Shown in pieces: positions 1 through 50,758 of a stretch of DNA of 60,812 bases. Both the position numbers and the translations under genes were made by a program. The notes beneath the pieces are model-generated. The model worked only from the letters and a program-made list of their open reading frames with translations, ran no database searches and was not told where the DNA came from. How positions within the stretch are numbered: position 1 is the first letter of the stretch; every line of letters begins with the position of its first letter. Source of the DNA: Candidatus Thorarchaeota archaeon (lineage in GTDB: Archaea; Asgardarchaeota; Thorarchaeia; Thorarchaeales; Thorarchaeaceae); contig JAEOUM010000177.1 in the NCBI GenBank assembly GCA_016839275.1, positions 1 to 60,812 of the forward strand. Direction: 5' to 3'.

Positions 1-790
1 AGTGACTTCGCGCACTTTCACACGCGGCCCCTCACTGCAAGCAGCTGCGGGCATCTCGGTTTCCCTTCGTTTACGGCTTGTCGCCTTATCCTTGCCACGC
101 CCATGAACTCCCTGGCCCGTGTTTCGAGACGGATGATGCTGATTCGATCCACTCGAGTCCTACAACACAATCACTCATGCTTCGTTCCCCGAGTATCTTA
201 TCTTGTAATCAGCATCCTTTGAATAAACCAGTGGTTTCAGGTGCTTTTCACCCCGCTTCCGCGGCACTTTTCAACTTTCGCTCGCGCTACATAGTTTACT
301 ATCGGTTTGGCTGAGTATTTAGGCTTCGCAGATTGTACCTGCGATGTTCACGCGAGAAAACCAACCCGCGCTACTCTGGTTCCACAAACATACCGGCATC
401 TTACGCCTACGGGGGTGTCACCCTCTACGCCGTGTCGTTCCAGACAACCTCGGCTTCGTATGCTAAGGTAATTGTTCGTGATCCTTACACCACATCCCCC
501 TGTACTCGTCGCACAGGGATTCGGTTTGGCCTATTCCCCTTTCGCTCGCTGTTACTTGGGGAATCACAGTTGTTTTCTTTTCCTGCCCGTACTAAGATGC
601 TTCAGTTCCGAGCGTTCCCAATCCGAGAATGACCCCGGATCCATATGGGGTATTAACCCATATGAGGAAGTCCCATTCAGGTATCCGCGGATCAAAGACT
701 TCATGCGTCTACCCGCGGCATATCGCAGCTTGTCACGCCCTTCTTCAGCTAGCCAACCTAGTCATCCACCACTGGCCGTATAGCGAAATT
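1..790 (-). rRNA. rrl: 23S rRNA, 5' portion; continues beyond the left edge of the window, 5' end approximate
   Basis: The reverse complement contains conserved LSU domain I segments, e.g. GGTGGATGACTAGG, GAACTGAAGCATCTTAGTA, AGTAACAGCGAGCGAAA and CCGATAGTAAACTATGTAGCGCGAGCGAAAGTTGAAAAG, plus the archaeal-type CCGTCTCGAAACACGG. Confidence 0.95.
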
Positions 791-4834: not shown

Positions 4835-5851
4835 TTACTTTTTTCTGCGAATATAGACCACAGTTATGAAAATCAATGGAACAATGATGAGAGCAGCGTA
4901 GAATAGATATTGTGTATCTAAAGGAAAAGTGACATTTCCAGCGACCTGCTCGACAACGAAGGTTTCCAGGACTCTGCCAACAATCTCTAAACTTTCAGCA
5001 CTACATTTGTCAGGGGTGTCCGCAAGAGTGTGCCAAGAATCTGGAAAGGGATACTGAATCAAATCCACTGCAGGGATGCCAGCATCAAGGAATGGCCTAT
5101 GATCATCAGTGATAGTAGCACCCGTAGTATCAAGAAAAGTATCACCATAACCCATCTGGCTCGCTATTGACCATATTGCATTCTGCAATGATGTTGTTGA
5201 GCTGCCTTCACGAGGAATAGTAAGATCAGAATCTCCCACCATATCAACTAAGACCATAGCGCGAATCGATTCTCTTCTAGAGGTGTTGAGCACGGACACA
5301 TAATATGTAGAACCCTGAATCCAATCCCAGCCATCAATCCCGCCTGAGTCTTCGGCATCAAAAAACATGAGTTCGACTTTAGAACGAACGGAGGCAGGGA
5401 GAATATGTGCCAATTCCATAAGAACTGCAGTTCCACTCCCTCCATCATTTGCTCCCAGAATTGGTTTCGTTCGATTTAGTGGATCTGGATCTGCAGAAGC
5501 CTCAGGACGAGTATCATAGTGCGCTCCTAGAAGGATGGTTGCGTTTGTTGAAGAGTTCCACGTAGCAATAATGTTTGTACATAGTGTTTCCTTATACGTA
5601 AAGTTCTGGAGTGTAACATTCCAACCGAACGATCCAAGTGTATCTTGAATATAGAGGTTGCATAGGGTTAGATTTGCAGATCCTGGCGGTCTTGGTCCAA
5701 AAGACACCTGACCAAGGAGAAAGTCGTAGGCATCATCCCCATTAAAAATCGGAACATGAGAGATTTGTGCATTTACCTGTATTGTGAATCCAGATAGTAG
5801 GATGATGACCAGTGTGATAAATCCAAAGACTCTCATTAGGACTACTGACAC
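4835..5851 (-). CDS. M28 family metallopeptidase / glutaminyl cyclase-like, secreted with a C-terminal membrane anchor
   Basis: Motifs GAHYDTRP, GANDGGSG, FFDAED, DMVGD, DDHRPF and WHT; N-terminal signal and C-terminal TM followed by RRKK. Confidence 0.9.
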   Translation of the reverse strand: MSVVLMRVFGFITLVIILLSGFTIQVNAQISHVPIFNGDDAYDFLLGQVSFGPRPPGSANLTLCNLYIQDTLGSFGWNVTLQNFTYKETLCTNIIATWNSSTNATILLGAHYDTRPEASADPDPLNRTKPILGANDGGSGTAVLMELAHILPASVRSKVELMFFDAEDSGGIDGWDWIQGSTYYVSVLNTSRRESIRAMVLVDMVGDSDLTIPREGSSTTSLQNAIWSIASQMGYGDTFLDTTGATITDDHRPFLDAGIPAVDLIQYPFPDSWHTLADTPDKCSAESLEIVGRVLETFVVEQVAGNVTFPLDTQYLFYAALIIVPLIFITVVYIRRKK

Positions 5852-13807: not shown

Positions 13808-14736
13808 TCCAGTGGGGAATAGCCATCAATCTCAGAGAGTCGGTCTCCGAAATTGTGGAGAAGGCTATAGTTGCAGATAGTGGTGGTATGGACTCCATCT
13901 GGATAATTGACTATCCAGCAGTTAGGTTATCACCCATTTTAGCCTCAGTGATAGCTCAAAGGACTAAACAATGTAGAATTGGTGTAGGTCTTCTGAGTCC
14001 GTTAGTCTATCCACCAAAACAAATAGTGCAATACATGTCTACCCTGATAAAACAGCATGGTAACAGATTTGATCTAATGATAGGTCCTGGTGACAGGGCG
14101 AGGTTAGCTGATATTGGTGTCAAATACGGAAGGAGTGCAAAAATTGTAAGTAGAATGGCAGAGTCACTGGAAAGAATTCGAGAGGGGTTGACTGTTTATC
14201 AGGGTTGTCGTATATTCTTGGGGGCGCAAGGTGCGAAGATGATAGAAACCTCTAGAAACTCCGACGGAGTGCTTCTGAATTACTCGGATTCTGAGATGAT
14301 AAGATGGGCAACAGAAACATTGGGAGACATTCCGGATACATTCGGGATTGGTGTTTTTCCCCCATCATTAGTTGGAAACTCGGTGCATTGTAGTAAACAA
14401 CTTAGTATTCGAACCGCTGCAGGAATTGTAGCACTAGGAGTGAGTCCATCGATAAGGACCCGTTTTAATCTAGACGAAAAACTTCAACCTGCACTATCGC
14501 TGCTGAGGGCGAGAGGCAAAATTGATGAGAATGTGATCAATTTAATTGATCAAAGTGTCATTGACAAGTTCTGTGTTTGCGGAACACAAAAGAGTGTTTG
14601 TAATCGAGTAAAACTGCTTGCAGAGCTAGGAGTGACAATAGTAGTCTTTGGCCCTCCACAAGGAGCGACTATTGATGGTGTGAAACAATTAGTCCAAGCA
14701 AAGAGAGTCTGTGAACAATCAGATACTAACTCTTAG
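13804..14736 (+). CDS. Second, more divergent LLM-class oxidoreductase
   Basis: DSIWIID, RIGVGLLSP, IFLGAQGAKM..SDGVLLN and VVFGPPQG. ATGA overlap with the upstream stop supports a start at 13804. Confidence 0.85.
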   Translation: MIQWGIAINLRESVSEIVEKAIVADSGGMDSIWIIDYPAVRLSPILASVIAQRTKQCRIGVGLLSPLVYPPKQIVQYMSTLIKQHGNRFDLMIGPGDRARLADIGVKYGRSAKIVSRMAESLERIREGLTVYQGCRIFLGAQGAKMIETSRNSDGVLLNYSDSEMIRWATETLGDIPDTFGIGVFPPSLVGNSVHCSKQLSIRTAAGIVALGVSPSIRTRFNLDEKLQPALSLLRARGKIDENVINLIDQSVIDKFCVCGTQKSVCNRVKLLAELGVTIVVFGPPQGATIDGVKQLVQAKRVCEQSDTNS

Positions 14737-28618: not shown

Positions 28619-28758
28619 TATGTCAGCAATTTTCAGGGCAAGATGATTACATATAACCTTAAGCCTGTCATAAGAGAAGTGTTTTAACATGAGAAACATA
28701 ATGGAAATGGTGGGTAGTTGAATATACTCCCATTTCCCCATATGAGAGGTAGGGAAAA

Positions 28759-29139
28759 ATGAGCAAGAAATGGATACAGACTGCGGATTGGAAGAGTGAG
28801 AAACATATTCCTGCAATTGAAATCTCGAAAATAGAAAATGGTCGAGTCTATGTGAAAGTAGCTGTTGGAAAGGAAATCCCACATCCTAATACAACAGCCC
28901 ATCACATCAAGTGGATTGACCTATTCTTCTGGCCAGACGACGAAAAATTCCCCTGCGAGATTGGGTACGTCAGTTTTGATACACATGGTGAGTCAGCTCA
29001 AGGGCCAGATACAGGTTCAGTACACTCTGAGCCAGTTACAAAGTTCGTCTTTTCAACGAAAAAGTCAGGTACTTTGATGGCTACTGCCTACTGCAATATA
29101 CACGGACTTTGGAAGAGCGAGGAAGAGCTCAAGATCTAG
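28759..29139 (+). CDS. sor: Superoxide reductase (neelaredoxin / 1Fe-SOR)
   Basis: EKHIP, PHPNTTAHHIKWI and CNIHGLW. Confidence 0.93.
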   Translation: MSKKWIQTADWKSEKHIPAIEISKIENGRVYVKVAVGKEIPHPNTTAHHIKWIDLFFWPDDEKFPCEIGYVSFDTHGESAQGPDTGSVHSEPVTKFVFSTKKSGTLMATAYCNIHGLWKSEEELKI

Positions 29140-29164
29140 ACCTATCAATGCTACAAATATCGGC

Positions 29165-29218
29165 TGGAGTCTGCCTACAGAGTTGTAGCCAGACCTCCAC
29201 CACACTGTTTTTCATTTT
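29165..29218 (+). terminator. Hairpin plus T-rich tract after sor
   Basis: TGGAG-TCTG-C-CTACA/GAGT/TGTAG-C-CAGA-C-CTCCA followed by TGTTTTTCATTTT. Confidence 0.55.
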
Positions 29219-29531
29219 CACTGAGAGATGATTTCTAAGATTATTACACCATAGATAGTTGAACCATCTGAGAGCCCCCTCACAATCAGACGCTTCCCAC
29301 CATGTAATGCAAATTCTTCAGAGTGATAGTCTGCTGAAAACAGCTTCACAAGGAAGGATTGCTGATAAATTTGTATTTGGCCCCTGCAGTAGTTGCTATC
29401 ATATATTGGTCAATATCCTTGATAGAAGCCTCACAATGTGATTTCATCCATAATTGTATTCAACATGACAAAACTGTCTTTTCGATAGTCACATCTTGTG
29501 ACTTCATCTAGTGACCCCCTAAAGTGGCTTC

Positions 29532-29543
29532 GCTATATATACT
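29532..29543 (+). promoter_or_regulatory. Candidate TATA box for the micro-ORF operon
   Basis: GCTATATATACT lies about 40 nt upstream of ATG 29574. Confidence 0.45.
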
Positions 29544-29573
29544 AATTCTGAGTAGTATTTCTTGTGAACTATT

Positions 29574-29678
29574 ATGGCTCTAGCAACCAACACCCGGAAC
29601 ATATCTGTGCTGAAGAATAAGACTGGTCGAGTTTACTCGACTGAGGCAATCACTTTCGCCTACCAGTATCGGAGGTAA
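29574..29678 (+). CDS. Microprotein, 34 aa: MALATNTRNISVLKNKTGRVYSTEAITFAYQYRR
   Basis: Translated by hand. It is a paralog of the next ORF, and its last codons (CGG AGG TAA) form the GGAGGT site for that ORF. Confidence 0.65.
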   Translation: MALATNTRNISVLKNKTGRVYSTEAITFAYQYRR

Positions 29679-29684
29679 AATATC

Positions 29685-29771
29685 ATGGCTCTATTGAGAA
29701 AGACAAGTAAGAATTCCTATAATAAGAGAATCTCTACTGACGCAATTACCCACGCTTACATGTACAGGTAG
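29685..29771 (+). CDS. Microprotein, 28 aa: MALLRKTSKNSYNKRISTDAITHAYMYR
   Basis: GGAGGT upstream; shares MAL and ST[ED]AITxAYxYR with the previous ORF. Confidence 0.7.
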   Translation: MALLRKTSKNSYNKRISTDAITHAYMYR

Positions 29772-29777
29772 ATTACA

Positions 29778-29885
29778 ATGGCATCGCAGAAATCATCTTT
29801 CGACAACCACCCTAGTACAACCAACGATAAAGCAAATAATCGTTGTTTAACAGATGAAGAAGTGCTCTTGCTCGAGGCGACCTGA
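29778..29885 (+). CDS. Microprotein, 35 aa: MASQKSSFDNHPSTTNDKANNRCLTDEEVLLLEAT
   Basis: Starts 6 nt after the previous stop, the same spacing as between ORF1 and ORF2, with AGGT upstream. Confidence 0.5.
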   Translation: MASQKSSFDNHPSTTNDKANNRCLTDEEVLLLEAT

Positions 29886-29918
29886 GCACTTCAAACTTGT
29901 TTTCAATACTTTGAATGA

Positions 29919-30521
29919 TTATGTATCAGCTTTCAAAATCCAACGCACAAGCTCCGAGTGCATAGAATTCTCTTTGATGAATTCGTCACGATATGAATTA
30001 CTCTTGAAGGCGAGAAGAATATTCTGCATACCAGCGTCAAAACCAATGATTCTCACAGCTCTGGCTAAAGCATTAGGCCTGAAGGCAATCGCTGTCATGA
30101 ACATAGAAATCGCGAAGATTGCTGTGAAGACTGTCACCCAGGGAGAAATAGGGCGCCCCCGTGATATTGAATCACCTAGGAACAACAGTCCAAAGAACAT
30201 GAAAGCCATAGCCAGTCCATCTACTATTAGACAGAGGGATTTGTATCGGTCCTCTCCCTCATCCGTGTAGTAATGATTAGCACAGACCTGGATGGGCAGG
30301 ACTTTGAGTGTGGGCTGTGGGATGCCTTGTTTTCTTCGAACATATGGGCTATAATAGGGATCCCATTCACGCCTCAGATATTGAGTTCGTCCTGTAACGA
30401 TAGTCATTCGAGATAGTAGTATTGCACGAGCCCCACAGATAGGACAGATTTTTGGAAATCGTGCTCTAGATAGGTCTACGCGAACTATGGGATTATCAAA
30501 GTAGTGCTTCTTTGGACTCAT
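29919..30521 (-). CDS. Hypothetical membrane protein with two TM helices and a CPIC...CANH metal-binding motif
   Basis: FPKICPICG, IQVCANH and two hydrophobic segments; AGGAAGGAG upstream. Confidence 0.75.
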   Translation of the reverse strand: MSPKKHYFDNPIVRVDLSRARFPKICPICGARAILLSRMTIVTGRTQYLRREWDPYYSPYVRRKQGIPQPTLKVLPIQVCANHYYTDEGEDRYKSLCLIVDGLAMAFMFFGLLFLGDSISRGRPISPWVTVFTAIFAISMFMTAIAFRPNALARAVRIIGFDAGMQNILLAFKSNSYRDEFIKENSMHSELVRWILKADT

Positions 30522-30628
30522 AATTTGTAGACTCCTTCCTGATGAAGAAAGAAAGAATCAGAATAAAGAGTGTATCGAACTCCGCTATACTAAAGAATTT
30601 TTAACACAGAGGATGTGGTCCTCAGAAT

Positions 30629-31198
30629 ATGTATTACGGAGAAAAGGTTAGACTCAGGGCTTTAGAGCTTGAGGACTTGGATTTAGTGATGGAGAACTGG
30701 AATAATCTTGAGATGAGACAGTTCCTAGCTACTGCATGGCCGATGTCAAAGAATGCAGAGAGAAAATGGTTGGAACGAGCGACCACTATGGATCCATGGA
30801 GAGATGGTGGAATGGTTCTGGCAATCGAAGACAAAAAGACACAGGAGTTCATTGGTACCGTGAGTTTTTTTGACATATCGAAACAGAGTCAAAGAGCCGA
30901 ATTTGGTATTGCGATTCATAATCCGGAGAACTTTGGAAAGGGTTATGGAACAGATACTATCAGGGTCATGCTATGGGTTGGTTTTCATATCCTCGGGCTG
31001 AACAGCATTTTCTTGATTACTTTAGATGAGAATGAACGAGCTCAGCGGGCCTATGAGAAGGCAGGGTTCAAACTTGTTGGGCGATATAGACAAGCGACAT
31101 ATATGATGGGCAGGTTCCATGACTTTGTAATCATGGACTTGATTCGTGAGGACTTTCTCAAAGAGTATCCACCAGGAACACGCGTTGGTGAGCCTTAA
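30629..31198 (+). CDS. RimJ/RimL-like GNAT acetyltransferase
   Basis: RLRALE, AEFGIAI, GKGYGT and NERAQRAYEKAGF. Confidence 0.92.
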   Translation: MYYGEKVRLRALELEDLDLVMENWNNLEMRQFLATAWPMSKNAERKWLERATTMDPWRDGGMVLAIEDKKTQEFIGTVSFFDISKQSQRAEFGIAIHNPENFGKGYGTDTIRVMLWVGFHILGLNSIFLITLDENERAQRAYEKAGFKLVGRYRQATYMMGRFHDFVIMDLIREDFLKEYPPGTRVGEP

Positions 31199-49456: not shown

Positions 49457-50758
49457 ATGGAAACAAAAATCAGAGCTGAATGGGATACACTCCGTTCAGT
49501 AGCTATTCATAGATCAGGAATGGAGATGTTCTTTGGACTCCTTGAACCATATGCCTCGCTCTATGAACGTGCCTTCAGTCAGAATGGTGCAATACGAGAA
49601 CATGAGCGGTTAGAACATGTTCTGAAACATGAATTCCGAATCAAGGTTTTTCGGTTGAGAGATACAATAGTACAGGCTGCTGAACAGAGTCAAGAGATTC
49701 ATGATAGACTTGCGAAAGCAGCCCATGATGTTATTGAGGTATCAGGCAATACTGCAGATATCAAATTAGCACGTGGCGAACTCGAGAAAAACAAGGATAT
49801 ACTCGATCCTGGTCATTTCTTTGACATCCTGCTCTTGAATCCTCAGATTGAATTGGAGAGCGAGAAAGGCACAAGAATGATTCACTTGAACATTACAGAG
49901 AAACAACCTCTATCGAATATCTACTTCATGAGGGACCAACAAGCCGTGACAGACAAGGGTATTTTTCTATCTCGCATGAGTAAACCGCAGCGCAGAAGAG
50001 AGCCTACCGTCACGAAAATATTATGGGATGTCCTAGGAGCCAAAATTGTACATCCTGTCACGGAACCAGGAACATTCGAAGGCGGGGATTTCATACCTCT
50101 CAAAGACTTCGCTCTTGTAGGTGTTGGAGACCGAACAAATGAATCCGGAATCGAACAACTACTGAAATATGGTGTCGGATTCGATGAAGTCGGAGTCGTT
50201 CATCAACCTAATCACCCACTCATTCCAACTGATGACATAGACCCTATGATTGACATGCACCTTGACACATACTTCAATATTGCCTCTAAGGGTGTTGCTG
50301 TAGGCTTAAAACCGCTCTTGAAAGGAGCGAAAGTGGACATCTATAGCAGAAAAGGTCCAGGAGAATATGAGAAGGAGAAAGAGAACACAGACTTGCTCAG
50401 TTACATAACTGGGTGGGGATTTGATGTGGTTGGAATAACCACACTTGAACAACTCAGCTATGCGTCAAACTTTCTCACAATCAAAGATGGGACTATATTA
50501 GCTGTTGAAGTCGAGAGAGATATCAAAGATGTTCTTTTCAATCTTAAAAATAAGGCGAAGGCTGAACCAGAGAGATATGGAGGTCTTCTTGCGCAAGCAG
50601 AGAAAGACTATGAATTTCTTAAGAACGAGTCTGAATTCTTCCCACACAAAAGAGAGATCTATCAACATGGGATTGATGCATATCCCATGGTCCTCAAGAA
50701 TCTCACAGGTGGATATGGAGCAGCACATTGTATGACTGCGGCACTAGAGAGAAGGTAG
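49457..50758 (+). CDS. arcA: Arginine deiminase
   Basis: AEW, NIYFMRD, FEGGD, MHLDT and GGYGAAHCMT. Confidence 0.93.
   Translation: METKIRAEWDTLRSVAIHRSGMEMFFGLLEPYASLYERAFSQNGAIREHERLEHVLKHEFRIKVFRLRDTIVQAAEQSQEIHDRLAKAAHDVIEVSGNTADIKLARGELEKNKDILDPGHFFDILLLNPQIELESEKGTRMIHLNITEKQPLSNIYFMRDQQAVTDKGIFLSRMSKPQRRREPTVTKILWDVLGAKIVHPVTEPGTFEGGDFIPLKDFALVGVGDRTNESGIEQLLKYGVGFDEVGVVHQPNHPLIPTDDIDPMIDMHLDTYFNIASKGVAVGLKPLLKGAKVDIYSRKGPGEYEKEKENTDLLSYITGWGFDVVGITTLEQLSYASNFLTIKDGTILAVEVERDIKDVLFNLKNKAKAEPERYGGLLAQAEKDYEFLKNESEFFPHKREIYQHGIDAYPMVLKNLTGGYGAAHCMTAALERR

Follow-up and report, generated by a model that had tools for sequence, protein, structure and literature searches.

Are three adjacent open reading frames (ORFs) of only 34, 28 and 35 residues genuine genes, and if so, what might their products do for an archaeal cell? 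The question is raised by a stretch of 60,812 nucleotides (nt) from a Candidatus Thorarchaeota archaeon of the family Thorarchaeaceae (assembly GCA_016839275.1, contig JAEOUM010000177.1, positions 1 to 60,812 of the forward strand), which is hereafter called the window. ORF1 and ORF2 encode basic, paralogous microproteins, named here A-type (long) and B-type (short), and ORF3 encodes an acidic one, named C-type. An earlier note, made from the letters of this DNA alone, had described them as an operon of micro-genes, the first two sharing a conserved C-terminus, and had likened the products to precursors of ribosomally synthesised and post-translationally modified peptides (RiPPs). We find that all three are real genes under purifying selection and that ORF3 is a conserved third component of the unit, no odd one out. 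With regard to function, we tentatively favour a cytoplasmic helical hetero-complex of A, B and C, which would belong to a repressor-controlled regulon.

Three microprotein genes with signals of translational coupling

The sizes of the three ORFs, their positions and their spacing of exactly 6 nt from stop codon to next ATG agree with the earlier description, and so do the TATA-like element upstream and the ribosome-binding sites embedded in the end of each preceding gene (Table 1). Short ORFs are by themselves no proof of genes, since 38 ORFs of at least 20 residues can be listed in 2.5 kb. The locus stands out beyond chance because this genome holds 13 members of the family, because it is represented in 77 of the 85 genomes from this archaeal family, and because the ratios of non-synonymous to synonymous substitution rates (dN/dS) between orthologues are low. 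When the window operon is compared with orthologues in other species, dN/dS ranges from 0.20 to 0.60 for ORF1, from 0.04 to 0.23 for ORF2 and from 0.20 to 0.34 for ORF3. The tails of ORF1 and ORF2 in the window (STEAITFAYQYR and STDAITHAYMYR) show 6 differences over 8.2 synonymous sites and 5 over 27.8 non-synonymous sites; this contrast, together with the ratios between orthologues, bear out the claim of selection on the protein. Among nine orthologous loci, pairs of which are not independent, dN/dS amounts to 0.44 in the N-terminal part of A and 0.28 in its last 14 codons, the corresponding values for B being 0.30 and 0.15, and neither half of A or B gives any sign of diversifying selection.

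In both paralogues, the N-terminal half is basic and variable and the tail is conserved as S-T-x-A-[ILV]-x-x-A-[YF]-x-[YF]-R-R, the final R being optional in the family; nearly all members start with M-A-L, a few with MAI, MAR or MSY. A six-frame motif search followed by a hidden Markov model (HMM) located additional members on five further contigs of the 2.58-Mb assembly, and the 13 relatives counted by the profile search sustain the description of the locus as an operon of real micro-genes, the first two being paralogous.

The anatomy of the unit was read from 46 cassettes, namely the window and 45 further loci, which come from 19 genomes of nine genera, this one included. In these cassettes, A-type peptides have 33–37 residues, a mean net charge of +5.1 and a grand average of hydropathy (GRAVY) of −0.58, and B-type peptides 27–31 residues, a charge of +6.0 and a GRAVY of −0.68; Cys occurs in three of 78 peptides and a hydrophobic segment in none. 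The order A then B is kept in most cassettes, across the nine genera. A gap of 4–8 nt separates 29 of 31 adjacent family pairs, and the second gene of the 31 pairs is preceded by a GGAGG Shine–Dalgarno sequence in 20 cases, a partial one in 10 and none in one, while the first cistron lacks such a sequence in 39 of the 46 cassettes. Further, 42 cassettes have a TATA-like hexamer, and in 39 of them the first such hexamer starts 36–41 nt ahead of the initial ATG; given the usual layout of archaeal promoters, this distance implies that the 5' leader is very short or missing. Such a pattern is the one predicted for a first cistron with little or no leader and later ones that are coupled.

The third gene follows B in 20 of the 46 cassettes and is lacking in the other 26. 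Its acidic product has a variable N-terminus and a conserved end, [ST]xxEVLxxEAT, represented by RCLTDEEVLLLEAT in ORF3. A profile of C matched 55 of the 85 genomes of the family and none of the eight that lack A/B, and its matches directly adjoin those of A/B; at the thresholds used, 22 of the 77 genomes with an A/B match have no C match. Seven distinct database proteins of 69–90 residues are natural B-C fusions, in which Gln takes the place of the window's TAG stop (protein sequences, from short metagenome contigs). Since they share 44–87% identity with one another, the fused state is itself conserved, and these fusions provide the best evidence that B and C may physically work together. Two variant cassettes were noticed in addition. 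L083, the lone cassette of genome G042 (another genus, 98% complete), holds an A-like and then a C-like ORF (end GEILNLEAT) without B, and is possibly an ancestral two-part form. On contig C29 of the present genome (about 49560–49650), an A-B cassette without C is followed, within about 100 nt, by an apparent tRNA gene on the opposite strand.

In the window, the three ORFs lie in a single frame (29574–29885), parted by TAA or TAG plus two codons, and reading through them would yield a polypeptide of about 100 residues. Programmed read-through was considered and rejected, as the shared frame is not conserved and the gaps between family members measure 4–8 nt elsewhere. Rfam and tRNA scans of the window returned nothing at the micro-ORF locus; the only RNA gene in these scans is the 5' part of an archaeal large-subunit ribosomal RNA gene at 1–793 on the minus strand, running off the contig start. 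In the one metatranscriptome run searched, 10% of the words of 28700–30600 were matched, and the sole contig of this RNA library (29925–30149) covers the neighbouring 200-residue gene, outside the micro-ORFs, contigs being unable to show absence.

The range of the family is narrow. A/B profile matches were obtained in 24 of 24 other genomes of the same genus and, in the search made alongside, in none of 16 genomes of other families. The 77 positive genomes of the archaeal family cover 15 of its 16 other genera with 1–14 matches each, and the single genome of the sister family has none. A phylum-wide draw at E ≤ 1e-4 gave matches in 64 of 77 genomes of the same family and in none of 223 genomes from 29 other families. 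The pattern ST[DE]AIT.AY.YR, which the earlier note had proposed as a probe, was searched as degenerate DNA in 185,579 species (one genome each) and found in 14 stretches, 10 in records titled Candidatus Thorarchaeota and four in records titled 'uncultured archaeon'; viral contigs gave no match to this strict form. Among 1.84 billion representative proteins, 53 profile matches were obtained at E ≤ 1e-3, almost all of 29–49 residues, and none is joined to a larger domain (51 of the 53 sequences were read). One of them, P0022, is an unrelated repeat protein, and P0004 and P0043 are giant proteins with weak matches over short stretches, those of P0004 not exceeding the threshold.

Searches against described families and structures were equally without result. 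ORF1–ORF3 have no match in Pfam and a chance match of 14 bits in NCBIfam. PDB sequences match at chance level (best E = 0.038, with an L18 N-terminus, and E = 0.41), and a dockerin helix start, 'NSTDA', appeared at E = 1.3, likewise at chance level. In the ESM Atlas, no named cluster reaches 0.9 and unnamed clusters lie at 0.90–0.91; a cluster of Tn916-integrase DNA-binding domains, at 0.89, was set aside as falling below the counting level. No description of the family was found in the literature, as far as listings, the beginnings of abstracts and passages of one preprint reveal it. On these sequence searches, the peptides form an undescribed archaeal family, as the note had supposed, and one specific to a single family of Thorarchaeota.

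Table 1. Positions of the micro-ORF operon, its control elements and its neighbours in the window.
Feature	Position	Strand	Remarks
Putative palindromic operator GTCACATCTTGTGAC	29488–29502	+	Kept in 34/46 cassette promoters
Promoter block GTGACC	29511–29516	+	Columns at least 90% conserved in the 34-promoter alignment
Promoter block GTGGCT	29524–29529	+	Columns at least 90% conserved in the 34-promoter alignment
TATA box TATATATA	29534–29541	+	From sequence and promoter alignment
Conserved block CTTGTGAA	29561–29568	+	Between TATA box and start codon; 34-promoter alignment
ORF1, A-type long basic microprotein	29574–29678	+	34 residues
GGAGG, ribosome-binding site of ORF2	29671–29675	+	Within the final two Arg codons of ORF1, before TAA
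ORF2, B-type short basic paralogue	29685–29771	+	28 residues
AGGT	29766–29769	+	Across the final Arg codon of ORF2 and TAG
ORF3, C-type acidic microprotein	29778–29885	+	35 residues; EEVLLLEAT end
Desulfoferrodoxin/superoxide reductase (SOR)	28759–29139		Pfam
Orphan of 200 residues	29919–30521	-	Convergent; CPxC...C motif and hydrophobic segments; without Pfam family
GNAT	30629–31198		Pfam

With regard to the surroundings, the earlier note had named SOR, a Zn-motif membrane protein and a GNAT as neighbours; Pfam recovers the first and the last, and the 200-residue gene between them belongs to no family. The same arrangement, SOR, A-B-C, the convergent Zn-motif membrane orphan, GNAT and then a transketolase gene, is kept at nine loci in three genera, which marks it as one of several old and positionally stable locus types.

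A shared operator and its candidate repressor

The 95 nt before the first ATG are near-identical in four cassettes of this genome, and an architecture TAGTCACA-N3-TGTGAC...GTGACC...GTGGCT...TATATAC...CTGAG...CTTGTGAA-N5-ATG is kept in 34 of the 46 cassettes, spread over nine genera. Its first element is the palindromic putative operator. The GTGACC and GTGGCT blocks may represent further half-sites of the repressor or a transcription factor B recognition element, and the CTTGTGAA block resembles an operator half-site, a role that it might also play. Contigs of the DNA metagenome break at the promoter bin 29532–29595, where the depth reaches about 830 against about 27 in the flanks, some 30 times deeper, with about 123 in the preceding bin. 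Because of this depth peak and the contig ends that coincide with it, the promoter can be recognised as a high-copy repeat in the community. In other respects, a second type of promoter was noticed, with GGTTTG-N-CAAAC as its palindrome and a TTATATG box immediately after it; 5 of the 46 promoters match it, and it is used by the C15-type cassettes (contig C15, about 14190–14250, minus strand) and by an MFS gene on contig C184 (about 700–760, plus strand).

The operator is not confined to the cassettes. The strict form GTCACA-N3-5-TGTGAC occurs at five sites in the 2.58-Mb genome, four before cassettes and one before a nitroreductase gene on contig C84, and a closely similar sequence, with another TGTGAC and a TATA box after it, lies upstream of a gene for a 413-residue bactofilin-domain protein on contig C123. 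Five other genomes likewise carry the strict palindrome at cassettes, and in four of them, G001, G042, G065 and G097, it is also found upstream of the orthologous bactofilin-domain gene. A small winged-helix gene of the HTH_45 type, weakly similar to Sso10a, ends just before this bactofilin operator in the four genomes examined for it, the present one among them (contig C123, 2630–2968 of locus L032), and we infer that its product is a candidate repressor of the regulon. As a separate observation, the operator-bearing nitroreductase gene adjoins an actin-family gene (C84:1–1780; PF00022, E = 5e-114).

Oppositely charged partners that are encoded together and sometimes fused, present in many copies per genome and preceded by a palindromic operator, also recall a toxin–antidote module, in which free basic A/B would be harmful, acidic C would neutralise them and autoregulation would act at the palindrome. 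We regard this as very unlikely. The antidote is not always there, given the 26 cassettes and 22 genomes without C mentioned above, the loci are syntenic across genera and not mobile, the operator also stands before ordinary genes, a separate winged helix-turn-helix protein is the likelier repressor, and no known toxin or antitoxin family was matched in Pfam or NCBIfam, nor was any fold family known from type II systems.

The conserved tail and the search for maturation enzymes

The tail is predicted to form an amphipathic helix with one conserved face. AlphaFold2, run on ORF1 with an 18-row alignment, returned a single helix with a mean predicted local distance difference test (pLDDT) score of 66, rising to 76 over residues 21–30, and a predicted TM-score (pTM) of 0.27. 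A B-C fusion, run with a 20-row alignment, gave helices at 19–38 and 61–68 and a pTM of 0.30; pLDDT was 76–85 over the B tail helix and about 71 over that of C. Read onto a helix, the alignments gather the conserved A, I, A, Y, Y and R of the tail on a single face, opposite the variable positions, and the A-x-x-x-A spacing is one that suits close packing of helices. A complex of A, B and C predicted from alignments, with C as the partner, scored 0.03 against a mark of 0.32 and was used neither way.

Since the tail contains aromatic residues in a Y-x-Y arrangement, as do the short peptides of the biarylitide, cittilin and triceptide classes, the earlier note had drawn an analogy with cross-linked peptides and had likened the genes to those of RiPP precursors. 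Neither idea was supported. None of the 46 cassettes has a maturase gene beside it, and no family of that type is recurrent in their surroundings. In five genomes, namely this one (84% complete) and four others (96–98%), neither cytochrome P450 (PF00067), which cross-links the aromatic residues of biarylitides and cittilins, nor YcaO (PF02624), the cyclodehydratase of azol(in)e RiPPs, was found, by searches that matched 8 and 5 of 14 control genomes, respectively. Radical-SAM proteins with a SPASM domain, the kind of maturase expected beside triceptide precursors, were detected in three of the five, none beside a cassette, the nearest seen lying about 55 kb away on contig C39 of G097; G042, which possesses a cassette, has no SPASM match. 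By contrast with biarylitides, cittilins and triceptides, the defining enzymes are absent or unlinked here, and the motif does not demand an aromatic residue at each position: those of Tyr accept F, W or T, and tails range over YRR, FRR and TVVR. The examination of cassette neighbourhoods for modifying enzymes or transporters, which the note had proposed, came out divided, with no recurrent maturase family on the one hand and genes of the major facilitator superfamily (MFS) at sister cassettes on the other.

There remains the reading that the aromatic tail is modified by a distantly encoded enzyme and that the product is perhaps exported by MFS pumps. In its favour, the paralogues are short, exist in many copies and keep an aromatic motif, and in this genome alone a nitroreductase-family gene is preceded by the operator. 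Prochlorosins offer an example of scattered precursors that share a single distant enzyme, and in some systems small products derived from peptides leave the cell through MFS pumps; both likewise count in its favour. We nevertheless find it highly improbable in view of the enzyme searches, the near lack of Cys, the tolerance at the Tyr positions and the variable tails, and also because B continues beyond the motif into C in some relatives. Tandem pairs of short aromatic peptides, one may caution, need not be RiPPs.

Sister cassettes with efflux pumps, and the favoured explanation

A further arrangement distinguishes some sister cassettes from the operon of the window. In pump-type loci, the cassette, under the same promoter, continues into an MFS gene, sometimes by way of more micro-ORFs, and one MFS family is common to nine such loci in three genera. 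In this genome, the cassette of contig C5 ends 6 nt before a gene for a DHA3/EntS/Mef-like MFS protein, and that of contig C184 precedes another MFS gene. At C15-type loci, which carry another palindrome (GTTTG..CAAAC), genes for DrrA-like ABC-2 exporters and an OPT transporter lie 2–4 kb from the cassettes (six to seven loci). Synteny among relatives may be a matter of inheritance, and of these arrangements the direct chaining to MFS genes alone gives a functional hint. Pump-type cassettes were also seen to hold a further conserved micro-ORF, W[LI]VSDP...WSPSGH (contig C5, about 5470–5600, minus strand; contig C184, about 262–390, plus strand), whose DNA is rich in GGTCAC/GTGAC repeats resembling the operator half-site; this region may be an array of binding sites instead of, or besides, a gene. 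The Zn-ribbon and membrane proteins beside three different cassette types were compared for kinship and turned out to be unrelated.

Such loci bring to mind exported leaderless cationic peptides, bacteriocin-like, PSM-like (for phenol-soluble modulin) or signalling, with A and B acting jointly outside the cell; the MFS protein would export them or protect the producer, and C would be a helper or immunity peptide. Paralogous genes that lie in tandem, measure about 30 codons, have a ribosome-binding site each, lack a signal peptide and share one tight promoter would agree with this, and so would the translational chaining to MFS genes (the 6-nt gap on contig C5, contig C184 and nine loci elsewhere), the exporter and OPT genes near C15-type cassettes and the surplus of N-x-S/T sequons that the long peptides show. 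The peptides, however, are hydrophilic (GRAVY about −0.6), and their conserved helix of about 12 residues is too short for membrane activity, no membrane-active helix running along the peptide. The transcription unit of the window operon includes no transporter, be it ABC or other, and no immunity gene. There is no sign of diversifying selection, dN/dS being below 0.5 in both halves, and the loci are positionally stable across genera, without any strict-motif match in viral contigs. Moreover, MFS antiporters with 12 transmembrane helices carry small molecules and not peptides of 3.5 kDa, and this substrate range counts against export. We consider this reading unlikely, without dismissing it.

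Known secreted peptides are alike in some features and different in others. The aurABCD genes of aureocin A70 and the staphylococcal PSM-alpha genes are, like the cassettes, tandem paralogues of 20–35 codons with their own ribosome-binding sites, no signal peptide and one promoter that a dedicated regulator controls; yet their products are hydrophobic or amphipathic throughout and need an ABC exporter, whereas those described here are hydrophilic with a helix of about 12 residues, have an acidic third partner and an archaeal host, and share no sequence family with them. Class IIb bacteriocins such as lactococcin G and plantaricin EF likewise consist of two peptides of about 30 residues encoded side by side, presumably made in equal amounts, and a small-xxx-small motif, here A-x-x-x-A, could mediate helix pairing in both; however, there is no double-glycine leader, immunity gene, ABC transporter or membrane-spanning hydrophobicity in the present case.

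Chaining to pump genes would also be expected if A and B acted in cis as leader or coupling ORFs, their translation, perhaps through drug- or metabolite-dependent stalling of the ribosome at the conserved tail, setting the level of C or of the MFS protein downstream. What is conserved is indeed a run of about 12 residues that ends at the stop codon, the peptides are roughly as long as the exit tunnel, coupling between stop and start codons is tight, and the sister cassettes are chained directly to pumps related to DHA3 antiporters of the Mef/EntS type. Control by stalling leader peptides is known for bacterial genes of such pumps, which counts in favour of this reading. The likeness to the stalling leader peptides of mef/mel and erm, and to TnaC and SpeFL, lies in the sister cassettes, where a Mef/EntS-like MFS gene comes after micro-ORFs whose C-terminus is conserved. 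But the operon of the window ends at the convergent gene, so that nothing above the 35-residue C is left to regulate, a downstream gene being found solely in the sister cassettes of the MFS type. There is no fixed register, as the motif A[ILV]xx[AS][YF] ends 3 residues before the stop in 26 peptides, 4 in 41 and 5 in 17 (n = 86), and it becomes internal in B-C fusions. Besides, conservation extends to the initial MAL and to the N-terminus of the A type, and genomes hold up to 14 copies, most of them without a pump downstream. All this makes a leader role distinctly unlikely. Small soluble proteins of the MntS, SgrT or MgtS type, which bind transporters or enzymes and adjust their activity, resemble the present ones in size, in the co-transcription of some copies with a transporter and in having no enzymatic features; they differ in that there is no homology, that most copies here stand away from a transporter and that those proteins are not three-peptide units.

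The explanation that we favour, while granting it somewhat less than an even chance, starts from one short-leader transcript from which A, B and C would be produced in fixed proportions. The peptides would stay in the cytoplasm, in keeping with their hydrophilic composition, and assemble into a hetero-complex through their conserved helix faces, by way of the small-xxx-small spacing and the aromatic residues. Acidic C might pair with, or mask, basic A/B, and the basic arms might contact a polyanion, for instance a nucleic acid or the acidic surface of a protein. One repressor, for which the HTH_45/Sso10a-like protein is the candidate, would switch the operon together with the bactofilin-domain gene and the efflux pumps.

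Several points weigh against this proposal. About one quarter of the cassettes examined run directly into an MFS pump gene, a chaining that suits a role in export or as a leader at least as well. The low single-chain pTM values (0.30 and 0.27) leave any tertiary or quaternary arrangement unsupported. The 45 further loci were picked by hand from the lists of matches and are not a random sample. The long peptides contain 41 N-x-S/T sequons against 26.6 ± 4.5 after shuffling, a count reached in 4 of 2000 shuffles; at least one sequon occurs in 31 of 49 long peptides and none in 18, with a concentration at residues 7–10 and 15–16. Such an excess would suit an extracellular glycosylated peptide, the sequences being related and not independent. 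Lastly, the gene for the bactofilin-domain protein belongs to the core, in single copy (78 of 85 genomes), and occurs also in genomes without the peptides, and there is therefore no signal of co-variation between the two.

A more specific form of the cytoplasmic complex can be imagined, in which A and B would form a heterodimer made of a basic arm plus a short pairing helix and bind nucleic acid, formally like a pocket-sized basic leucine zipper (bZIP), with C, sometimes fused to B, as its built-in acidic antagonist. We give it a very small chance. If true, it would mean that one Asgard family possesses a regulatory layer of microproteins, wired to a regulon that one repressor controls and that includes a bactofilin-type cytoskeletal gene and drug-type efflux pumps.

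Genes of about 30 codons are mostly overlooked by annotation. That one Asgard family keeps up to 14 copies of them per genome, under a promoter that ranks among the most rigid seen in these genomes, implies a function important to the cell. A defined three-part unit that has its control site in common with a cytoskeletal-type gene, and pump-linked sister cassettes besides, offers a compact and testable entry into Asgard-specific biology and regulation.

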